64,000 nucleotides of DNA, taken from NCBI GenBank assembly GCA_964416315.1, contig CAYQDR010000003.1, positions 46,031 to 110,030 of the forward strand, read 5' to 3'. The translations under genes were made by a program, and so were the position numbers. The DNA comes from an uncultured bacterium. GTDB taxonomy: Bacteria > Methylomirabilota > Methylomirabilia > Rokubacteriales > DASRDR01. Below the pieces are notes generated by a model. It was not told the origin of the DNA, did not search any database, and was given only the letters and a program-made list of their open reading frames with translations. Positions 4,109 to 59,570 of this stretch are shown piece after piece (within the stretch, counting starts at the first letter, position 1; every line of letters begins with the position of its first letter).

Positions 4109-4375
4109 GTGCCAGACGCCTACGGCGAGTTCGAAGCGACGACCCTCTTCTGCCCGCGGTGCCGGCGCCCCGTCACCGTGCGGAAGAAGCTCCTCCTCGT
4201 CCTCCCCACGGGGAACAAGTACGACTACATCTGCCAGGAGTGCGGCGCCCCGGTCGGTGGCAAGCTTGACCACGACCCGACGGCGTTTCACCAGACGTCC
4301 CGGGCCGCCGTCGCCGCGGTCCGCCGCGAGCCGCCCCGCCCGCGCCGCCCCCGGCCTCTCCGGCCCACCCCCTGA
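4109..4375 (+). CDS. small zinc-ribbon protein
   Basis: CPRC..x22..CQEC pattern with a basic Pro/Arg tail. 88 aa. Confidence 0.4.
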   Translation: MPDAYGEFEATTLFCPRCRRPVTVRKKLLLVLPTGNKYDYICQECGAPVGGKLDHDPTAFHQTSRAAVAAVRREPPRPRRPRPLRPTP

Positions 4376-9142: not shown

Positions 9143-10483
9143 CTACTCCCACATCGCGTCGAAGATGGAGCCGGCGAGCGTCGGGAAGACGTAGTGCATC
9201 GCGGCGAGATCCTGGCGCGTGAGCCCCCCGCGCATGGCGGCCGAAGCGACGTGGATCAGGTCCTCGGCCCCCGGACCGAGAATGTGGGCCCCAAGGAGCC
9301 GCCCGGTCGACGCCTCGGCCACCACCTTGACGAGGCCCTCGGTTTCCTCCCGCACCGCCGCCGCGGTGCTGTCCTCGAAGGGGACCCGGCTTACTGAGAC
9401 CTCGAGCCCCTGCCGCCGCGCCTCGGCCTCCGTGAGCCCGACCTGCCCGATCGCCGGGATCGTGAAGACGGCCGTGGGGAACCACCGGAGGTCCACCGCG
9501 CGCTGGTTGCCTCGGAGCGCGTTCTCCGCGACGAGGCGGCCCTCGTACCAGGCGACGGGGGTGTGCTGGTGCTGGCCCGTGACGTCGCCCGCGGCGTACA
9601 CATGCGCGGCCGTGGGTGACTGGCGGAACTCGTTGACCTTCACCCCGCCCCGCTCCACCGCCACGCCGGCGGCCTCGAGGCCGAGGCCGGCGGTGTTCGG
9701 GGGGCGGCCGGTCGCCACCAGGACGACGTCGCCCGGGAACCGCTCGGCGCGCCCCCCGACCTCCGCCTCGACCGTGCGGTCGGCGCCGATCCGCGTGACG
9801 CGCGCCCCCGTCCGGACCTCGAGCCCGGCGTCCCGGGCGATCGCGAGCAGCGCCTCGCGGATCTCGTCGTCCAGGGCCGGCAGGACGTGCGGCCCCGACT
9901 GGAGCACGGTGACGCGCGTCCCGGCCCGCGCAAAGGCGAAGCCGAGCTCCATCCCGATGTAGCCGCCGCCGACCACCACCATCCGCGCCGGCAGGGTGGC
10001 GTGGTCGAGCAACTCGTCGCTCGTCATGGCGTGCTCGATCCCGGGGATCGGCGGCCGGGCCGGGGAGGAGCCGGTCGCGATGATGACGCGCTCGGCCGTG
10101 ACCCGGCGCCCGGCGACGTCGAGCTCGCGCGGCCCGCGGAACGTCGCGCGGCCGCGGAGAACCGCGATCCCCTGCCGCTCGAAGCCCGTGTCCTTCCCGG
10201 CCGACCACTCCGCCACCAGGCGGTTCTTCCGCGCGATGATGGCACCCCAATCGAGCCCCAGCCCCGCCGTCCCCGTCACGCCCAGCCCGGCCGCGCGGCG
10301 CGCCCGCCAGGCCAGCTCCACGGTGCTGACCAGCACCTTTTTCGGGATTCAGCCGCGCCCGAGGCAGGTTCCCGCGAAGCCGTCCGCCTCCACGAGCGCC
10401 GTCCGGGCGCCGAGCCCGACGGCCGTCCGGGCGGCGAAGCCCCCCGCCGTTCCCGCGCCGATCACCAGGAGATCGTAGTCCAC
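9143..10483 (-). CDS. MerA-like flavoprotein disulfide reductase; in-frame TGA (10351-10349) at the second active-site Cys, candidate selenoprotein
   Basis: MDYDLLVIGAGTAGG FAD-binding fold. Active site GTCLGRG-[TGA]-IPKK where the family has CxxxxC. Blocks IIATGSSPARPPIPGI, LVATGRPPNT and VYAAGD resemble MerA-core blocks as recalled. Strong SD GGAGAGGAGG 5 nt before GTG 10483. The ORF track shows only the post-TGA part, 9143-10336. Confidence 0.7.
10322..10337 (-). ncRNA. SECIS-like stem-loop GGUGCU-GGUC-AGCACC, 11 nt downstream of the UGA at 10351
   Basis: Perfect 6-bp stem with GGUC loop. Spacing and loop match the E. coli fdhF SECIS apical hairpin as I recall it. Confidence 0.55.
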
Positions 10484-10523: not shown

Positions 10524-10706
10524 TCAGCCTCGTCCCTCCACGGGCACGAGGGCCCAGGCGCCGAACTCGTAGGTGACGCGCTGCCGCACTCCGTGGCACT
10601 CGATCAGGTCACCGGGCCGCACGTCGTCCGGCAGATGCACGACGTGCTCCCCCACCGCACAGCTCGCCGTCTTGACCGGGCTGACCGTCCACACGCCGTC
10701 CGTCAC
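10524..10706 (-). CDS. hypothetical 60-aa protein between the redoxin and reductase genes
   Basis: ORF MTDGVWTVSPVKTASCAVGEHVVHLPDDVRPGDLIECHGV... No family recognised. Could be a small beta-barrel protein or non-coding. Confidence 0.3.
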   Translation of the reverse strand: MTDGVWTVSPVKTASCAVGEHVVHLPDDVRPGDLIECHGVRQRVTYEFGAWALVPVEGRG

Positions 10707-10824
10707 GCTCGCCCGGAGCGTGAGCCCGGCTCAGTTGGGTCAGTCGAAGACCCCGCCGTTGGCGATCCCGTCCGGGATCGCGATCTGCTGGCCTCAGCCC
10801 GGGCACCAGGCGGTCGGCATCCGC

Positions 10825-11061
10825 CTACGCGAGCCCGAGCAGCCGCTCGAGCCTGCCCCGGTCGAAGCCCACCACGGCCTCGCCGTCGATGACGGTGACC
10901 GGCGTGGCGCGGTAACCGAGCGCCTGGAGCTCCGCCAGGGCGGCTGGGTCCTGACGGATGTTCCGGTCGGTGAACACGACGCCTTTCTGAGAAAGAAACT
11001 CTTTCTCCGCCTGGCAGGCCCCTCAGCCAGGCTGCGTGTAGACGACGACCGACTTGGCCAT
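10825..11061 (-). CDS. NrdH/glutaredoxin-like redoxin with UxxC motif (TGA at 11025-11023), candidate selenoprotein
   Basis: MAKSVVVYTQPG-[TGA]-GACQAEKEFL..TPVTVIDGE..VGF is the NrdH/Grx fold with the first Cys of CxxC replaced by TGA. SD GGAGGG before ATG 11061. Hairpin GAGAAAG-AGUUU-CUUUCUC at 10989-11007, 15 nt after the UGA. Confidence 0.65.
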
Positions 11062-11227
11062 CACGCCCTCCGTTCGCTCACGCGGCGTTCCCCGCCAGGA
11101 GGCCGCCGAAGATCCGGCGGCCGAGCTTGAACGCTTCGCCCACCGTGGCGCCGGCCCCGGGCACGTCGGGGTGCGCGTCGTGCCAGGCCCGCAGGTGCTC
11201 TTCCGACCGGAAGAAGTTGAGCGTCGT

Positions 11228-11758
11228 TCAGAGCGAGGTGAAAACCTTCCGGTCGATCTCCCCCCGCTTCCCGACCCAGACCATGACCCCGTCGGCACCC
11301 GGACCCGGTCCCTCCGCGTCGGCCTCGAACTCGAGGGGCCCCCCGCAGTGGTGGCAGCGCGAGCGGATCTCCATGCACTGGCCCAGCATCGCCGCCACTC
11401 CGAGCGCGTCGATGGCGCAGCACGCGTACCGGCGCCGGCCGCCCGGGAGCACCACCGCGAACGCCGTCGGCACGGCGGCGAAGGGGTAGGCGAGCTCCAC
11501 CCGCCCCTCGCGGACAAGGATCAGGTCCCGCTCGTCCAGGCCCGCGACCTCCTCCAGCAGGCCATCGCGGGGTCGATCCGGAAACCAGGCCACGATCTCA
11601 TCGATCGGGATCGCTCCCTCCCGCTCGACAAACCGCCGGAGGATGCGCTGGAAGACCGCGTCCAGGCGCTCGGCCCGGCGGGTGGCCCAGCGCGCCTCGA
11701 GCTCCGGATCTACCAGCTCCTCGGCGGTCTTGATCTCCAGCGCCACCCGAGGCCTCAT
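11228..11758 (-). CDS. MerB-family (organomercurial lyase-like) paralogue
   Basis: YACCAIDALG and SRCHHCGG align with the MerB WCAxDTL and CxHxHFF catalytic regions. ATG 11758 directly abuts the merE stop. Confidence 0.6.
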   Translation of the reverse strand: MRPRVALEIKTAEELVDPELEARWATRRAERLDAVFQRILRRFVEREGAIPIDEIVAWFPDRPRDGLLEEVAGLDERDLILVREGRVELAYPFAAVPTAFAVVLPGGRRRYACCAIDALGVAAMLGQCMEIRSRCHHCGGPLEFEADAEGPGPGADGVMVWVGKRGEIDRKVFTSL

Positions 11759-12075
11759 GCGGCTGGACGGGGGGAGCCGCCCACCCCATTGGATTCGGCG
11801 ACCGGGGGCCGCGATTCGCCCGCCGTCCGGGGCGTCCCGCGGTCCGGCTCCCCCCAGGCCCGCAACCCGCGGAGCAGCGAGCCGGCGAAGACGACCGTCA
11901 TGACCGCGAAGGCCGCCGCCGCGTGCTCCCGGAGGACGGCGGCCAGGGCCGTGCCGCCCAACAGGGCGAGCGCCAGCGGAAGGTGGCACGGGCACGTGAC
12001 GGCGGCCACCCCGAGCAGGAGGTACGCCTTCCGTGGCCGCCCCGCCTCCGGTACGCCCCGGGTCATCGCCCGCAT
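11755..12075 (-). CDS. merE: MerE-like mercury transporter
   Basis: LLGVAAVTCPCHLPLALALLGGTALAAV matches the MerE LTCPCHLP transmembrane signature as recalled. Alternative ATG at 12066. Confidence 0.65.
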   Translation of the reverse strand: MRAMTRGVPEAGRPRKAYLLLGVAAVTCPCHLPLALALLGGTALAAVLREHAAAAFAVMTVVFAGSLLRGLRAWGEPDRGTPRTAGESRPPVAESNGVGGSPRPAA

Positions 12076-12082
12076 CGCACGC

Positions 12083-12724
12083 TCACGAACCCGGCAGCCG
12101 CCGCGCTTTGAAGCCCGCCGCTGCGATCGCCTCGACCATGCGCTCGATGGTAACCGAGGCGGGGTCGTACGTCACCCACGCCTTCGCCTGCTCGAAGCTC
12201 ACCTCGGCGTGCTGGATGCCCGGGAGCCCTGCCAGGGCTCGCTCGACCACGGTGGGTCAGGACCCTCAGGTCATCCCGTCCACCTGCAGGATCACGCGCG
12301 CCGCGACGACCGCGCCATGGCCGCCGGACGGACTCGGCCCGGTCCCCGCCTCGTGCTCCATCGCCGCGATTCCGCCCCACGACGCGATGAGCCGTGCCGT
12401 TCGGTCAGGGAACGCCGTCAGGACGACGGCAGCGGCGAGCACAACCGTCGAGATCCCCAGGAGCACTCCGTTGACACGGCCGCCGGCCATGGCGCATCCG
12501 AGCCGCTGGCAGCGCCGCCGTTCCCGCAGGTGGAGGTACCAGCCGAGGCCCGTCCCGAGGACCCCCGCGGGGATGAAGACGTACGTGTACCGCATCGTCA
12601 CCGCCATGAATGCCCCACTCCCCAGGCCGAGCACGACGACCGCGAGGGGGAAGAGGCAGCAGAGCGAGGCAACCGACGCGGACGCCATCGCCACGATGCT
12701 CGACCTCACGTCTGCGAGCTTCAC
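12083..12724 (-). CDS. MerT-like membrane protein fused to a MerP-like HMA domain; metal-binding motif reads GMT-[TGA]-GS-[TGA]
   Basis: TM1 with vicinal CC (ASLCCLFPLAVVVLGLG), loop Cys pair CQRLGC, third TM, then an HMA fold ILQVDGMT-U-GS-U-PTVVERALAGLPGIQHAEVSF..AWVTYDP..IERMVEAIAAAGF. TGA codons at 12268-12266 and 12259-12257. Hairpin GAGCCC-UGGCA-GGGCUC at 12224-12240. Start GTG 12724 overlaps the anti-sigma stop. Confidence 0.6.
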
Positions 12725-13368
12725 GGCCGCACCTGGTCCACCGTCGCGAGGCGTGCGAGCCAGAGGCCGGCGAAGGCCCAGAGCACCGCCCCGAGCCCCA
12801 GCCCCGAGACGAAGGCCACCTGGAGGGTGGGCGCGAACTCGCGGCACTGGATGATCACGTAGGGCGCCAGAATCCCGAGGAACAGCACGCCCGCTTCGAC
12901 CGCCCGGACCGCGGTCCCGTGCCGCAACAGCCACACGCCCAGCGCGACCGGTATCCCGTACGCAGCCCCGGCGACGAGATACGGCAGCGCATCGACGTCG
13001 GACCCCTGGAGCGCCTGCCGACACCAGGCGACCAGGAGGGGATACGGCACGAGCAGCGACAGCACGAGCGAAGCCGCGATCCCGATCAAGGCAGCCTGGG
13101 CGGCTGCGGCCCACCCGCGAAGCGCCAGGACGGACTCCCGGAGGGCGCGGCGGCGTACCTCGCGCAGCACCCGGGTCCTCACCGCGGCCGGGGGCGGCGC
13201 CGCCCCAGGCCAGCGGTCCAGGAGCGCCCAGGTCCCCCGGAGCGCCTCCAGCTCGGCGCGGCAATCCGCGCACGTCTCGAGATGCGACGCCACGTCCCCG
13301 GCCGGGGAGTCCTCCGCACCCCCAAGGCCGACGTCAAGCAGCCGGTCCCTGACCCCATCGCACTCCAT
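12721..13368 (-). CDS. membrane-bound ZAS-type (zinc-binding) anti-sigma factor
   Basis: C3...H29-x3-C33-x2-C36 ZAS motif (MECDG...SHLETCADC) followed by several transmembrane helices. Confidence 0.65.
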   Translation of the reverse strand: MECDGVRDRLLDVGLGGAEDSPAGDVASHLETCADCRAELEALRGTWALLDRWPGAAPPPAAVRTRVLREVRRRALRESVLALRGWAAAAQAALIGIAASLVLSLLVPYPLLVAWCRQALQGSDVDALPYLVAGAAYGIPVALGVWLLRHGTAVRAVEAGVLFLGILAPYVIIQCREFAPTLQVAFVSGLGLGAVLWAFAGLWLARLATVDQVRP

Positions 13369-13411
13369 GGCACGCCCCTCTGCCCTGGGAAACGAAAGGC
13401 GACGCGCTCCG

Positions 13412-13963
13412 TTACAGCTCGCCGAGCAGATCGCGGAGCCGGCGAAGGGCCCGGTGGAGGGTGACCCGCACCGCGCCCGGGGACGCCCCGATGATCTCCG
13501 CGACCTCCTCGGCGCTCAATCCGCCGAACCGGCAGAGGAGGACGACCTCGCGGTGGGAGGGGGGAAGCTCCAGCATCGCCGCCTGGAATCGCTCGCTGAG
13601 CTCGCCCGCCTCGGCCCGCTCCAGCGGCGTCGCGCTCGGATCGGCCAGCGTCTCGGCGAGCTCGCCGCCCTCCAGCACTCGCGCTCCGCTCCGTCGCCGG
13701 AACTCGTCCACGACCAGGTTTCGGGCGATGGTGAAGAGCCAGGTCCTGAACGCGGCGCTGGGACGCCAGCCCTCGCGGTGTGCGAACACCCGGAGAAACG
13801 TCTCCTGGAGGAGGTCCTCCGCCTTCCGCCGCTCGCCGAGGGACCGGAGCAGGAAGGTGAACACCCTTCGATGGTGCCGGTCGTAGAGCGCCTCGAAGGC
13901 TGTCGGGCTCCCCGCCCGCACCTCGTCCATGAGCACTTCGTCCGAGCGAGTCTCGCGCGGCAT
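13412..13963 (-). CDS. ECF-type RNA polymerase sigma-70 factor
   Basis: Sigma-70 region 2 and region 4 (FLLRSLGERRKAEDLLQETFLRVF ... LSAEEVAEIIGASPGAVRVTLHRALRRL). Start ATG at M17 of the listed ORF. Confidence 0.8.
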   Translation of the reverse strand: MPRETRSDEVLMDEVRAGSPTAFEALYDRHHRRVFTFLLRSLGERRKAEDLLQETFLRVFAHREGWRPSAAFRTWLFTIARNLVVDEFRRRSGARVLEGGELAETLADPSATPLERAEAGELSERFQAAMLELPPSHREVVLLCRFGGLSAEEVAEIIGASPGAVRVTLHRALRRLRDLLGEL

Positions 13964-14102
13964 GGCGAATCGGGGCGAAACGTCTTGAGTATACGCAGCG
14001 GCCAACCCCACGTCCGCGGGCGGAGATCGTCGCCGAGAATCCCTGGGCGCCCCGGACCCCTCAGAAGGCGTGAAGGGCAGACAGGACGAAGGAGGTCACG
14101 TC

Positions 14103-22500: not shown

Positions 22501-23286
22501 TCAGCGCCCGGTGAACCGCGGCTCGCGCCGCTCGCGGATCGCCGCCACGCCTTCCCGGAGATCGGCCGTCGTGTAGGTCACGGCCTGGCAGAGGGCCTCG
22601 TACTCCAGCGCAGGCGCCAGGGCACCCTCGAGCCCCTGATAGACCGCGCGCTTGAGCATCCGCAGGACGACCGGGGCGTTCCTGGCGATCGTCCCGGCCA
22701 CCTCGAGGACGGCCGGCATCAGCTCGGCCCGCGGCACGGCGCGGTTGACGAGCCCCAGCGCCTCGGCCTCGCGGCCCGTCACGAGCCGGCCCGTGTAGAA
22801 CAGCTCGAGGGCCCGCGCGAGTCCCACGGCGCGCGGCAGGGTCAGGGTCGAGGCCATGCCCGGATGGATCCCGAGGCGGGCGAAGTTGACGCCCATCTTC
22901 GCGTCCTCGGCGGCGTAGCGGAGGTCGCACGCGAGCGCCAGCGCGAGTCCGCCCCCGATGGCGTAGCCGTGGATGGCCGCGACCGTCGGGAGCGGGAAGC
23001 GCAGCAGGGAGAGGTAGCGCGCGTAGTAGTCGAGCATGACCTGGCGGCTCTCCTGCACGGGCCGCCGCGTGTTCGCCTCGATGAGCGCCATGTCGCCACC
23101 CGCGCAGAACGCCTCCCCCGCCCCCGCCAGCACCAGCACCCGGACGTCCTCCCGGGCTTCGAGGTCCGCGAGCGCCTCGGCGATCTCCTCTCCCATCCGC
23201 GCGCTCATCGGGTTTCGCTTCTCAGGCTGGTCGAGGGTCAGCGTGGCGATCCCGTCGGCGACCTCGAGGCGGATGGTCTCGGGCAT
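22501..23286 (-). CDS. enoyl-CoA hydratase/isomerase (crotonase family)
   Basis: Crotonase fold with oxyanion-hole motifs (FCAGGDM ... GYAIGGGLALALACDLR). Confidence 0.85.
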   Translation of the reverse strand: MPETIRLEVADGIATLTLDQPEKRNPMSARMGEEIAEALADLEAREDVRVLVLAGAGEAFCAGGDMALIEANTRRPVQESRQVMLDYYARYLSLLRFPLPTVAAIHGYAIGGGLALALACDLRYAAEDAKMGVNFARLGIHPGMASTLTLPRAVGLARALELFYTGRLVTGREAEALGLVNRAVPRAELMPAVLEVAGTIARNAPVVLRMLKRAVYQGLEGALAPALEYEALCQAVTYTTADLREGVAAIRERREPRFTGR

Positions 23287-42639: not shown

Positions 42640-44500
42640 GCTTACCGATGATCTCTCGGCGTCAAGCATGCGCAGCGCCAGGATAGCGGACCGTGCCGAA
42701 CAACCGATGCAGCCCGAGCCCCCTCAGCCAGCCGAACGACCACCGGGAGATCGCCGCGTGCCGGTCCCGCAGACCGTGACGCCGGGCCAGAAACAGCCCG
42801 AGCCGTTGCCGCACGTAGTGATCGATCTGGTTGAACTTCAGGGTGGCATTCCCAGCCGCGCGATGACGACCCGCACGTCCTTCACCCCGCTGTGCCGCGC
42901 GTCCGTCAGCTCTCGAATGCGAGCCCCGAAGCCGCTTCATGCTCCTCGGCGACGGCCATCGCTGCAAAAACATCCGGCCGGGATACCGCACCGACCGGCA
43001 CTTCTTCAGCCGACATCCGAGGAACTCGAAGCCCTCCTGCCCGCCCCCGAGCGCCACCAGCCGCGTCTTCTCCGGATGCGCCTCCAATCAGCCCCACCCG
43101 CCTGAGCGCCTCCCGCGCCTGCCCCTCGGTGCGACAGAGCACCACGAGATCGTCGGCGTAGCGAACCAACACGCCGAGCCCCGCGCACCGCTGCTGCCAG
43201 ATCCGATCGAGCCCATGCCGGGAGATGTTCGAGAGCAGCGGCGAGATTACCCCACCCTGCGGCGTCCCCACCACCGTCGCCTCTCGACGCCCTTCCTCCA
43301 GCACCCCGGCCTTCAGCCATCGCCGGATCAGCTTCAGCACCCGCCGGTCCGACACCCGCCGCCCCACTTCCCCCATCAGCCGGTCGTGGTCGATGCGGCC
43401 GAAGTAGTCCTGAATGTCGACCTCTACCACATGATCGTGCCCCTGGTTCGCTGTGACCCGAATGGTCTCCAGCGCCTCCGTGGCGCTTCGCTTCGGCCGG
43501 AACCCGTAGGACACCGGCAGAAAATCGGCCTCGAAGAGCGGCTCGATCACCAGCTTGGTCGCCATCTGCACGACCCGGTCCCGGACTGTCGGAATGCCCA
43601 ACGGCCGTCGCCGTCCATCCGCCTTCGGGATGTACCGCCGCTCCACCGGTGCCGGTCGGTACCGCCCAGCCTTGAGGTCGGCCTGGATCTCGTGAAGAAA
43701 CCCCTCGACCCCCCGCTGCTCAATGGCCGCGATCGTCTCGCCGTCCACCCCCGCAGCGCCCCGATTCGCTCGCACCCCGCGCCACGCTTCCCACAGGACG
43801 TCACTCCTGTAGATCCGGTCGTACAGCGCGTGGAACCGCCGCCCCCGACTCCGCTTGGCCGCACGCCACAGCGCCCGCTGGAGTTCTCGCACTTTGCCGT
43901 CCGGGTCGTTGGAGCTTGCGCTCATGCCCTCGCGCTTACCCCCAGGCGGACGCATGACCAAAGCAGGGGCCCTTCCCTCCAGGCGATTGTCTCGCCCTTC
44001 CCCGGTACTCCGACCCCCTCGGACGCCCTCCCGACGCCCCGCCGTTTCGGACTCGCCTTATCGACGTGGCCGTGCTCTGACTTGAGCCGTCGGGGAGGGC
44101 CTCTCCAGTTCCGCACCGGGCCATGGACACGTGCCGCTCCCCGTACCCCGGAGGGGTCCAGCGCCGCGCCGATCCTTACGCGCTGTCTGTGGCCTTCGCC
44201 GTGACATGCCCGGCTCGGCCCCCTCTGCCTTTCGGCTGATAATCTGACGAGGCGGCAGGATTCACGTGATGTTGCGGCCCGCGCCCTCGCTCCCTCCGTA
44301 GAGGCTCTTGACGCCCTGCTCAGCGTCGAGGCTCTCACCTCGCCGCCAGGGCCTGCTACTGAGCGCATCGGCGCTTACTCAGGCGGGACTTCCACCCGCA
44401 GGTCCGGTGCAGCTTGGCTGGACGCAGCACGGGAACAGCATACCACTCGCTCCCCTGGACTGGACCCCAAGGGCGCCGTCCGTGGGTGATCCAGGATCCG
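42640..44500 (-). mobile_element. group II intron (boundaries approximate) with degenerate intron-encoded protein
   Basis: Intron-encoded protein has RT motifs [30 protein letters not shown] and YADDLVV. The maturase/X domain [11 protein letters not shown]...NQIDHYVRQRL continues in a different frame. About 550 nt of non-coding 5' sequence fits domains I-III. Confidence 0.55.
42662..43925 (-). pseudogene. group II intron RT/maturase with frameshift between RT and X domains
   Basis: RT domain in frame of ORF 42906-43961 (start ATG 43925). X domain in frame of ORF 42662-43087. Confidence 0.55.
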
Positions 44501-44509
44501 GAGGGTTGC

Positions 44510-46231
44510 TCAAAGCAGCGGCGGCACGTACGCCTGGCGCTTGACGTCGAGGAGGCCGCGGGCTGTGAGGCGGAGCGCCGGGATGGCGGTGAAGGTCAGC
44601 GTCTGGAGGGTCAGCAAGGGGCGCGGGAGCCGACAGCCGAGGGCGCGCGCCGCCTCCTCGATCGCCTCCAGTCCGCGCGCGACCTCGCGGAGGGGCAGAT
44701 CCGAGGCCACGCCGCCGAGCGGGAGCGACAGGTCCGCGCGCACGGCGCCGGTGCCATCCACGACCGCGAGGCCGCCTCGCAGCTCCACCACTCGGCGCAG
44801 GGCCGCGCTCAACGCCTCGGGGGAGGCGCCGAGGACGACGAGGTCCGCCGTGTCGAAGGAGACCGTCGAGGCGAACGCGCCCTCGCGGAGCCCGAAGCCC
44901 CGGACGATCCCCAGTGCGCGGCGCCCCGCGACGCGGCGATCCAGCGCCGCCGCGACGAGGCAGTCCCGCCCGGGATCGGCGACGACGGCACCGTCCCGCA
45001 CGGGGAGGGTCACCGCGTCCTCCGCGGTCAGGATGTCGCCCGCGATCCGGATCACCCGCACCCGCGCCGTCGGCCCCGGGGCCGTGAGCCGCAGCGTCGC
45101 CGGCTCGAGCGGCCCGGCGCACAGGCCGGCGTAAACGCCCGCCGGCAGGACGGCCGGCTCGAGGGGCGCCAGGCACTGCCCCTCGCGGGCGACGACGCGG
45201 CCCCGCGCGACGACGACCTCCGGACGCACCGTCCGGAGGCCCGGCAGCAACACGAAGTCCGCGAAGCGCCCGGGCGCGATCCCCCCGAGGTCGCCGTCGA
45301 GCCGGTAGTGCTCGGCGACGTTCAGGCTCGCCATCCGGTACGCCGTGACGGGCGGGATGCCGAACTCGATCGCCTTCTGGACGATCCCGTCCATGTAGCC
45401 GTGGGCAAGGAGGTCGGCCGGCCAGACGGCGTCCGAGGCGAGTGCCGCGCGCCGGAAGTCCACGCCGTCGTGGCGGACCCCCGCAACGGCCGCGAGGTCG
45501 CGGCGCACCGAGCCCTCGCGCACGAACACGAACATCCCGAGCCGGAGGCGCTCGAGCGCCTCGGCGGCCGTGATCGGCTCGTGGCAGGAGCCGACGCCAG
45601 CCCCCACGTACGCGGCGAGCTTCGCGCCGCGGGCCCCCGCCGAGTGGCCCTCCACGGTCTTGCCGAGCACTCGGGCCCGCTCGATGAGCCCGCCGAGCCG
45701 TTCGGGCTCCGGGAGGAGGCGGTGCCAGTAGACCTCGCCGAGGCCCAGCACGGCCGGGTCGTCGAGGAGCGCCCGCATTTCGACCTCCCCGATGACCGGA
45801 GCCCCCGTGCCGTCGTCCGTCGAGAGGAACGAGATGACCGGCGCCGTCGCGAAGGCGTGGATCGGCTGCGCGCGGAGACAGTCGAGGAACCAGCGGGCGC
45901 CCGCCGACCCGAGCGCGGAGGTGAGCTGCCCCATCTCGGTGACCAGGGCCGTGAGCCCGCGCGGGATCGCCTCGCGCAGCAGCTCGGGGAGGCTCACCAG
46001 CGTGTCCAGGTGGGTGTGGCCGTCGATGAAGCCGGGCACGAGGACGTGCCCCGCGGCGTCGAGCCGCGCCGTCGCCGGCCCGGCGAGCCCCCCGAGGTCG
46101 GGTCCCGTGGCGGCCACCCGCTCGCCCGCGACCGCGACGTCCCAGCGGATGAGCTCGCCCGTGTAGACGTTGACGACCGTCGCGCCCGTGACGAGCAGAT
46201 CGGCGGGCGCCTCGCCCAGGGCGACCCGCAT
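44510..46231 (-). CDS. ade: adenine deaminase
   Basis: FIDGHTHLD metal-binding motif and amidohydrolase fold. Full-length match to the adenine deaminase family. ATG 46231. Confidence 0.8.
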   Translation of the reverse strand: MRVALGEAPADLLVTGATVVNVYTGELIRWDVAVAGERVAATGPDLGGLAGPATARLDAAGHVLVPGFIDGHTHLDTLVSLPELLREAIPRGLTALVTEMGQLTSALGSAGARWFLDCLRAQPIHAFATAPVISFLSTDDGTGAPVIGEVEMRALLDDPAVLGLGEVYWHRLLPEPERLGGLIERARVLGKTVEGHSAGARGAKLAAYVGAGVGSCHEPITAAEALERLRLGMFVFVREGSVRRDLAAVAGVRHDGVDFRRAALASDAVWPADLLAHGYMDGIVQKAIEFGIPPVTAYRMASLNVAEHYRLDGDLGGIAPGRFADFVLLPGLRTVRPEVVVARGRVVAREGQCLAPLEPAVLPAGVYAGLCAGPLEPATLRLTAPGPTARVRVIRIAGDILTAEDAVTLPVRDGAVVADPGRDCLVAAALDRRVAGRRALGIVRGFGLREGAFASTVSFDTADLVVLGASPEALSAALRRVVELRGGLAVVDGTGAVRADLSLPLGGVASDLPLREVARGLEAIEEAARALGCRLPRPLLTLQTLTFTAIPALRLTARGLLDVKRQAYVPPLL

Positions 46232-59176: not shown

Positions 59177-59570
59177 TCCCATCCTGGCCGCCCTGCTCGG
59201 CGGCCAGGCCCGGCGGGTCTTCTTCGAGGCCGGGGTCCAGGAGTTCGCAGTCCCCGAACCCGTGATCGACGAAGTCAGCCGGTATGTGCCAAGTCTGGCC
59301 CGCAAGCTTGGCGTGGACGTCGCGCTCGTACAGTACGCGCTCGAACTCCTCCCCCTGCGCCGCTATCCTGCGGGTGCATACGCTCGCGCGCTCGGGGAGG
59401 CCAGGCGGCGCCTCGCGGGGCGGGACCCCGACGACGTCGCCCCGCTTGCGCTTGCCCTACAGCTCGGGATCCCCCTGTGGTCGAACGATCGGGACTTCGA
59501 GGGCACCCGCATCGAGTGGTTCACCAGCGCGCAACTCCTGGCGCTCTTCTTCCCGCCCTCCACGCGCTGA
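59133..59570 (+). CDS. PIN-domain toxin (VapC-like)
   Basis: LVVDANPILAAL ... LWSNDRDF PIN motifs. TTG/internal start uncertain. Confidence 0.6.
   Translation: MPTSRKPERLVVDANPILAALLGGQARRVFFEAGVQEFAVPEPVIDEVSRYVPSLARKLGVDVALVQYALELLPLRRYPAGAYARALGEARRRLAGRDPDDVAPLALALQLGIPLWSNDRDFEGTRIEWFTSAQLLALFFPPSTR

Follow-up and report, generated by a model that had tools for sequence, protein, structure and literature searches.

How can two UGA codons that lie only 9 nucleotides (nt) apart be recoded when a single hairpin follows them? The question is raised by a gene in a 64,000-nt stretch of DNA (hereafter the window; positions 46,031 to 110,030 of the forward strand of contig CAYQDR010000003.1, assembly GCA_964416315.1) from an uncultured bacterium of the order Rokubacteriales. 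The gene, located on the minus strand at 12083..12724, encodes a MerT-like membrane part followed by a C-terminal MerP-like HMA domain, and the metal-binding motif of this domain reads GMT-U-GS-U, each U standing for an in-frame TGA. The original prediction had placed both codons and a hairpin resembling a selenocysteine insertion sequence (SECIS) at distances of 16 and 25 nt, coordinates that were all correct on the minus strand, and had considered that one element serves both codons, that the first UGA is decoded in another way, or that the domain is nonfunctional. The comparative data presented here favor the first of these options: a single SECIS hairpin probably directs the SelB-dependent recoding of both UGA codons, in succession, in a gene for mercury or heavy-metal uptake.

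Reading frame and domain composition of the gene

Read on the minus strand, the site runs ...CAG GTG GAC GGG ATG ACC TGA GGG TCC TGA CCC ACC GTG GTC GAG CGA GCC CTG GCA GGG CTC CCG..., which translates as QVDGMT*GS*PTVVERALAGL. The first codon of the motif (TGA1) occupies 12266..12268 and the second (TGA2) 12257..12259; beyond both of them (VDGMT*GS*PTVVERALAGLP...) the frame stays open for 58 codons up to the stop. Translation starts at a GTG at position 12724, which overlaps the stop codon of the preceding anti-sigma factor gene (GTGA), and the gene ends with a TGA of its own at 12085-12083, a third UGA that has no hairpin. As UGA is used more often than any other stop codon in the window and also ends this very gene, a reassignment of UGA in the genetic code was ruled out. 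Two plus-strand open reading frames (ORFs) in this region, 11054-12862 and 12033-12854, were likewise discarded; they are rich in Arg and Pro, as in high-G+C non-coding frames, and homology was seen for the minus-strand frame.

When Cys was put in for both stops the HMA domain was complete (residues 134-194; Pfam PF00403, E=3.4e-16, profile positions 2-62 of 62), and the two TGA codons coincided exactly with the cysteines of its GMTCxxC motif. Solved MerP chains (1AFI, 1OSD) matched the domain at E about 1e-12, and CopZ structures matched it too. With Cys substituted for selenocysteine (Sec), the top-ranked family was NCBIfam NF041115 (UxxU_metal_bind), at 92.3 bits against a curated cutoff of 95; homologues scored 88.4-108.6 bits with this model, which was the best family for all eight that were tested, three of them exceeding the cutoff. 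The likeness of the N-terminal 95 residues to MerT was weak (Pfam MerT, E=0.0039), the PF02411 score of 17.7 lying below the curated cutoff of 32.9. The MerTP fusion model (NF033556) gave 74.8 bits against a cutoff of 180, in an alignment that covered 5-185 of its 186 profile positions. Moreover, the MerT-like part contains the Cys pairs of such transporters, one in the first membrane helix (CC, in SLCCLFP) and the other in the cytoplasmic loop that follows helix two (RERRRCQRLGC); among 44 homologues C22, C23 and C77 were invariant and C72 nearly so. Together, these features suggest that the gene product is a mercury or heavy-metal uptake protein, made of a MerT-like three-helix membrane part and a MerP-like HMA domain, with Hg as its probable ligand. 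By MerT topology, the HMA domain should face the periplasm. That a putative UxxU site would have an extreme affinity for Hg, as originally proposed, is a reasonable inference.

In the databases this second half of the protein is missing. The top 44 matches of the protein search all stop at ...V(D/E)GMT, that is, they were cut at the first TGA by gene callers, and the few names found among them were all hypothetical.

Shape and energy of the SECIS-type hairpin

The hairpin, GAGCCC-UGGCA-GGGCUC, lies at 12224..12240 of the minus strand within the codons for R-A-L-A-G-L. A 16-nt spacer (12256-12241) separates TGA2 from the 5' arm of the stem (GAGCCC, 12240-12235), which is followed by the loop (UGGCA, 12234-12230) and the 3' arm (GGGCUC, 12229-12224). 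It can be read either as 6 bp with the 5-nt loop UGGCA or as 7 bp closing a GGC triloop. The distance to the stem is thus 16 nt for TGA2 and 25 nt for TGA1, and the distance to the loop 22 and 31 nt, respectively.

[quoted passage not shown] The hairpin agrees with it in loop, stem and energy (U-GGC-A, -10.7 kcal/mol), and both distances to the loop, 22 nt for UGA2 and 31 nt for UGA1, fall inside the allowed range. The loops found in the family were UGGAA, UGGAG, UGGCA, UGGCG, UGGUA and UGUCA. The original prediction started from the premise that a SECIS is needed at a fixed distance from each UGA; this was an overstatement given the range allowed in PMC13188914, and it fits only the optimum described for the E. 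coli fdhF element.

Taken alone, the 17-nt hairpin had a fold energy of -10.7 kcal/mol (z=-2.99), a stability reached by 1 of 200 shuffles. In wider contexts of 42-76 nt the fold energy was ordinary (z between -0.07 and +0.61), in DNA of 72% G+C. Because these contexts are unremarkable, fold energy alone was insufficient for significance, and the decision was left to the comparative data. In the MFE fold computed for 76 nt, GGGUCCUG is paired with CAGGGCUC instead, a structure that was rejected since the alignment gave it no support. A scan of the window against Rfam returned no family at the hairpin site; its sole match was a group II intron domain (RF02003, 90.5 bits) at 44267-44401 of the minus strand.

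Conservation of hairpin and downstream frame across homologues

We fetched 133 related loci (numbered with the prefix L where they need to be told apart) from genomes and metagenomes of Rokubacteria, Methylomirabilota/NC10, Binatia, Deltaproteobacteria, SAR324, Nitrospinota, Tectomicrobia and Acidobacteria. In most of the loci from outside Rokubacteria a gene of its own, right after the MerT-like gene, encodes the UxxU protein, which is secreted and about 108 amino acids (aa) long; in Rokubacteria the two are fused. The 133 loci yielded 81 distinct homologous sites, from Rokubacteria, Methylomirabilota, Binatia, Deltaproteobacteria and SAR324 among others, that could be aligned without gaps over 96 nt, comprising 63 UxxU, 17 UxxC and 1 CxxU motifs. 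TGA1 was present in 80 of the 81 sites, while the second position was TGA in 64 and TGC in 17.

All 81 sites had the hairpin in the same alignment columns (50-66). The proportion of paired cells was 94.9%, a value reached by none of 500 shuffles, and sliding the 3' partner by one column lowered it to 64% and 58%; RNAalifold, applied to the 96-nt region, returned this hairpin as the only consensus helix. The four core pairs of the stem were nearly invariant, and all of the rare changes there preserved pairing. Two-sided changes were found in L028 (GCGC/GCGC), L041 (GUCC/GGAC), L030 (GCUU/AAGC) and L047 (GCCU/AGGC), and a one-sided change giving a G-U pair in L118. Several of these changes altered the encoded protein (ALEAL, VLEGL, ALEKL, ALARL).

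The strongest argument for selection acting on the RNA came from codon use within the hairpin, tallied over 82 sites (the 81 above plus a paralogue in L003). The hairpin Gly was encoded by GGG in 77 of 78 Gly codons; for the invariant Gly of GMT the counts of GGG/GGC/GGA/GGT were 31/30/20/1, and for the invariant Gly three codons past the hairpin Gly they were 10/33/29/10. Similarly, the hairpin Ala was GCC in 79 of 81 cases, and another conserved Ala was distributed as 25/18/17/16 among GCG/GCA/GCC/GCT. The hairpin Leu was CTG in 78/82. As a control, the best local hairpin had a median energy of -9.8 kcal/mol at Sec-type HMA sites (n=90) versus -3.2 kcal/mol at Cys-type sites (n=12) of the same loci. 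Conservation, and not energy, is what establishes the predicted hairpin as a real feature.

Past both TGA codons the frame was open in every aligned sequence, and downstream of the hairpin the third codon positions were the most variable (entropy 1.58 vs 1.07 and 0.94). This pattern points to a downstream HMA domain that is translated and under coding constraint. The earlier suggestion that the domain might be nonfunctional was rejected on these grounds, the HMA frame being conserved in 81 distinct sequences with variation concentrated at the third codon position.

One hairpin and two UGA codons

The natural variants of the motif separate the two codons. At the 17 UxxC sites only the far codon is present, 25 nt from the stem and 31 nt from the loop, and at the CxxU site only the near one, at 16 and 22 nt. 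In a neighbor-joining tree at least five independent U/C switches were counted at the second position and one at the first, and the hairpin never moved. Because its position is fixed in UxxU, UxxC and CxxU forms alike, the hairpin would work with the far codon alone and with the near codon alone. A spacer shifted to match whichever codon is TGA had been considered as the pattern that would speak against one shared element; the homologues with one TGC and one TGA show no shift. As these comparisons indicate, one hairpin placed at a compromise distance is sufficient, and a bacterial SECIS would tolerate a spacing range of at least 9 nt. No second conserved structure dedicated to TGA1 was found in the alignment by RNAalifold. 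A GGN/CCN mini-hairpin between the two TGA codons, tried as an element for TGA1, was equaled by 151 of 500 shuffles and was therefore dropped as unsupported.

The organism itself clearly uses Sec, because three neighboring genes carry a single in-frame TGA at the position of a catalytic Cys, each followed by a hairpin with a G(G/U) loop. In these other putative Sec genes of the window the distance from the UGA to the start of the loop is 17 nt for the oxidoreductase, 19 nt for the MerB-like gene and 22 nt for the glutaredoxin-like gene. At 22 nt, TGA2 is thus ordinary for the window.

How a single element might be used twice can be outlined as follows. The mRNA channel of the ribosome covers, by our estimate from general ribosome structure, roughly a dozen nucleotides 3' of the A site. 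The loop of the hairpin would be the binding site of SelB and its charged tRNA. With UGA1 in the A site the hairpin, 25 nt downstream and hence outside the channel, should still be folded and able to hold SelB with the charged tRNA. Three codons on, after Sec-Gly-Ser, UGA2 would enter the A site with the same intact hairpin 16 nt away, which is the usual distance in this organism, and a second SelB complex would have to load. The ribosome would then melt the hairpin, read it as A-L-A-G-L and terminate at the third UGA (12085-12083), which lacks a hairpin. Reloading within two elongation cycles seems feasible because the association of SelB with the SECIS is fast, estimated at 100 per second at 1 uM SelB (PMC4513850).

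Several observations weigh against this proposal. At 31 nt, the distance from TGA1 to the loop is larger than in the four other UGA-hairpin pairs of the window (17, 19, 22 and 22 nt), and the optimum in E. coli is 11 nt from the UGA to the minimal stem (PMC8659212), shorter than both the 16- and the 25-nt spacer. Little was found in the literature searched about the experimental spacing tolerance of bacterial SECIS elements. Since the core of the stem is almost invariant, true covariation comes from about six sequences. Some distant relatives also depart from this arrangement. In two SAR324 homologues (L040, 4445-4540, and L044, 4447-4540, both on the plus strand), with the motif GLTUGGU, two hairpins follow the motif: the loop of the first, GGCGAUU-GUYA-AAUCGUC, comes 18 nt after TGA1 and that of the second, CCUUUCA-GGUC-UGGAAGG, 27 nt after TGA2, so that in this lineage there may be one element per codon. 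Furthermore, L003 encodes on the minus strand of the same contig a second UxxU HMA protein, a paralogue with the motif GMTUPIU, whose hairpin (CACGCC-UGGAA-GGCGUG) is placed 9 nt further downstream; its loop lies 31 nt from the second codon and 40 nt from TGA1, outside the 16-37 nt range. Sec insertion at either codon is a prediction from sequence comparison. The genes selA, selB and selD were absent among the 20 large ORFs of the window that were scanned, and ARAGORN found no tRNA gene in the window, hence no selC there. Finally, recoding in E. coli is 30-40% efficient per event (PMC4513850); if the same applied to each event here, little of the protein would be made in full length.

Alternative explanations

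Recoding by way of the hairpin and SelB does not by itself dictate the amino acid, which may be Sec or Cys at either UGA. The original prediction had mentioned a different decoding of the first UGA, for example as Cys; one or both UGA codons could be read as Cys through the SelB-dependent tRNA-ReC (selC*), giving a CxxU, UxxC or CxxC product. This has been raised for the UXXU motif of [NiFeSe] hydrogenases, in which one or the other UGA codon, or the two of them, could be read as Cys, tRNA-ReC-like genes being present in ~56% of the genomes that encode such hydrogenases versus ~2% of other Sec-type genomes (PMC13582414), and the existence of natural UxxC and CxxU variants in our family implies that one Cys is functionally tolerated. 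However, ARAGORN detected no tRNA-ReC in the window and only ordinary tRNAs (in L013 and L049) in 53 related loci, although tRNA genes need not be linked to the genes they serve, and the retention of TGA at both positions in 63 of 81 sites, in several phyla, is hard to explain if the cost of recoding were paid for a mere Cys. We therefore regard this explanation as unlikely and Sec at both positions as the better account of the double UGA.

A second alternative takes UGA1 as mostly a true stop: translation would yield chiefly a MerT-like protein with ...GMT as its end, to which the HMA domain would be added occasionally, by SECIS-independent near-cognate read-through or when selenium is plentiful, so that the gene would give two products. 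The 31 nt between this codon and the loop, outside the 17-22 nt of the other Sec codons in the window, would suit such an arrangement, as would the competition between recoding and termination known from E. coli (PMC4513850); besides, most relatives outside Rokubacteria have separate genes for the MerT-like and HMA proteins, so that a MerT-only product could work. Those separate genes nevertheless argue in the other direction, since a protein of ~108 aa stopped at UGA1 would end near residue 45, before any fold, and yet it is conserved, with UGA1 present in 80/81 sites. In addition, the UxxC variants rely solely on UGA1 being read, with the same hairpin. This leaves a predominant stop at UGA1 quite improbable. 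It is also true that databases and gene callers break off the protein at the first TGA, under the label hypothetical, as would be expected if the codons came from sequencing errors or from a decaying HMA domain; but the same two TGA codons recur in 63 distinct sequences of independent assemblies, the frame beyond them is open and coding-constrained, and the hairpin is under selection, leaving hardly any room for an artifact or a pseudogene. Recoding of both codons from one SECIS hairpin thus stays the explanation that we prefer.

A candidate additional helix

The alignment contained a weakly supported candidate for a further helix, UGACC/GGUC(A/G), of 5 bp, which includes TGA2 itself (12244..12259, minus strand; alignment columns 31-35 with 42-46). 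All five pairs could form in 41 of the 63 UxxU sites and in the one CxxU site, and in none of the 17 UxxC sites. The Val codon involved was GTG in all 17 UxxC sites, and GTC in 44 and GTG in 16 of the sites where TGA2 is present; one compensatory case was found, in L014. The signal is weak and is confounded by phylogeny through the clade structure of the family. Such a helix would sit inside the ribosome while TGA1 is being decoded. As a separate observation, L030 carries a UxxC paralogue in which 19 nt separate the single UGA from the loop.

The mer-like operon and its other putative selenoprotein genes

The gene belongs to a minus-strand operon in which the order is ECF (extracytoplasmic function) sigma factor, anti-sigma factor, MerTP-like protein (UxxU), MerE-like, MerB-like, glutaredoxin (Grx)-like, a small ORF and a MerA/Lpd-like flavoprotein, with a predicted total of five Sec codons in four genes. 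The sigma factor (13412-14011) and the anti-sigma factor (12721-13368) form a block directly upstream of the MerTP-like gene (12721..14011), and this pair stands in place of a MerR regulator. Immediately downstream, 11755..12075 encodes a small MerE-like membrane protein with a TCPCHLP motif and no Sec codon (Pfam MerE, E=1.2e-10; NCBIfam MerE 59 bits against a cutoff of 80), whose stop codon overlaps the start of the MerB-like gene (ATGA).

The MerB-like lyase (11078..11758, minus strand) was recognized by Pfam MerB and scored 58.5 bits with the SaoL model NF040728, the cutoff of which is 140. Its in-frame TGA (11230-11228) occupies the position of the catalytic Cys159 of MerB, as in the SaoL selenoprotein, and is followed after 12 nt by the hairpin UUCUUCC-GGUC-GGAAGAG (11215-11198). 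Local tblastn searches of the fetched loci, used for this and the following two genes, recovered 27 MerB-like homologues with TGA and 13 with Cys. The Sec forms (NFFRSEE) had the hairpin CUUCC-GGUC-GGAAG, and the Cys forms (NFFCS) were without it; the homologue in L049 has TGC, yet it retains most of the hairpin. A Cys-type MerB was observed on the opposite strand.

In the Grx-like gene (10825..11061, minus strand) the motif is U-GA-C, its TGA lying at 11025-11023 and its hairpin, GAGAAAG-AGUUU-CUUUCUC, at 11007-10989. Among the homologues located beside MerT-like genes, 62 of 63 had TGA, and the conserved hairpin GAAAG-AGUUY-CUUUC encodes K-E-F-L-S. The last gene (9143..10483, minus strand) encodes a MerA/Lpd-like flavoprotein disulfide reductase with the motif C-LGRG-U. 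Its TGA (10351-10349) is followed by the hairpin GGUGCU-GGUC-AGCACC (10337-10322), which resembles that of fdhF in starting 11 nt after the TGA and in having a GGUC loop. Homologues of this reductase comprised 4 with TGA and 9 with Cys, the former coming from two lineages, Rokubacteria (L051) and Deltaproteobacteria (L007, L105 and L128, with the stem GGUGCU/GGCGCC), and showing compensatory changes in the stem. A CxxxxU flavoprotein disulfide reductase was not found in the 2026 selenoprotein catalogue that we checked, nor was a selenoprotein-specific NCBIfam model present among the best 25 of its 57 matches.

Between the Grx-like and the oxidoreductase genes lies the small conserved ORF (10524-10730, minus strand; ...CHGVRQRVTYEFGAWALVP). 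It carries a motif of the RLTFEYGAF type that corresponds to the N-terminus of some MerT-like homologues (P0105) and that was also found in L133. Elsewhere in the window, pairs of same-frame ORFs joined by a TGA at 4373-4375, 22501-22503 and 59568-59570 were rejected as selenoprotein candidates, being separate adjacent genes.

Implications

The HMA half of what seems to be a widespread mercury-uptake system, found in Rokubacteria, Methylomirabilota, Binatia and Deltaproteobacteria, is invisible in annotations because gene callers cut it at the first TGA (44/44 top entries). The family also provides comparative evidence on how two bacterial UGA codons 9 nt apart are recoded. It is tempting to combine the two aspects and to envisage one SECIS used twice within three codons as part of a conserved selenium-dependent operon for mercury and organomercury, with five Sec codons in four genes, but this combined view is a tentative one that we hold to be rather doubtful as a whole. 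If it were true, two SelB deliveries would take place in quick succession, and the MerP-like family would constitute the cleanest natural experiment on the reach of a SECIS (22 vs 31 nt). Mercury handling in the Rokubacteria and Methylomirabilota of soil and groundwater would, moreover, be tied to the selenium supply. With a diselenolate site for Hg, and with Sec also in the lyase, the glutaredoxin and the reductase, the detoxification of mercury would depend on how much selenium is available, a possibility that is relevant to the Hg-Se antagonism in soil. No new principle is involved.

Comparison with known systems

The UxxU HMA family is not new to the literature, in spite of the novelty that the original prediction implied. 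It has its own NCBIfam model (NF041115), and two selenoprotein catalogues, PMC9312934 and PMC13188914, include it as a putative mercuric reductase or metal-binding protein (UxxU, 2 Sec), both citing Zhang & Gladyshev 2007 (PMC1976440) for it. Like the proteins described by NF041115, the gene in the window encodes an HMA fold with UGA at both cysteines of the CxxC motif; unlike them, it does not encode a stand-alone domain of ~74 aa, as in the model, but one fused to the C-terminus of a MerT-like protein.

The resemblance to MerT plus MerP of the Tn21/Tn501-type mer operons, and to the MerTP fusions (NF033556), extends to the Cys pairs, to an HMA domain of the GMTCxxC type and to MerE/MerB/MerA-like neighbors. 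In contrast to these systems, the gene analyzed here has Sec codons in place of Cys, scores far below the cutoffs of the corresponding models and is not accompanied by MerR. A MerT-like part fused to a Sec-containing HMA domain is also the arrangement of the family NF045683 (MerT/CopZ fusion-like heavy metal transport selenoprotein); however, our gene matches this model in the HMA part only, with 34.8 bits against a cutoff of 375, and represents a different fusion lineage.

With respect to the RNA, the closest parallel is provided by the UXXU Group 4 [NiFeSe] hydrogenases reported in 2026 (PMC13582414), in which two UGA codons, two codons apart, are followed by one predicted downstream SECIS. 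The architecture of this element is common to the UXXU and CXXU forms of the enzyme, and its authors proposed a single SECIS for both UGA codons. The hydrogenases differ in being unrelated proteins with a cytoplasmic Ni-Fe site, and the comparison there comprised 16 UXXU sequences versus the 63 UxxU, 17 UxxC and 1 CxxU sites of the present family. The E. coli fdhF SECIS, the experimental paradigm, is similar in being a stem-loop just 3' of the UGA, within coding sequence, whose loop begins with G plus G/U; there, the minimal element is 11 nt away and includes a bulged U (PMC8659212), whereas the hairpin described here lies 16 and 25 nt from two codons and lacks a bulge.

Thus, both the UxxU HMA family and the idea of a single SECIS for two UGA codons, the latter put forward for hydrogenases in 2026, are already in the literature, and the gene in the window is, as judged by its motif and domain order, a previously unannotated fused form within the catalogued UxxU family.

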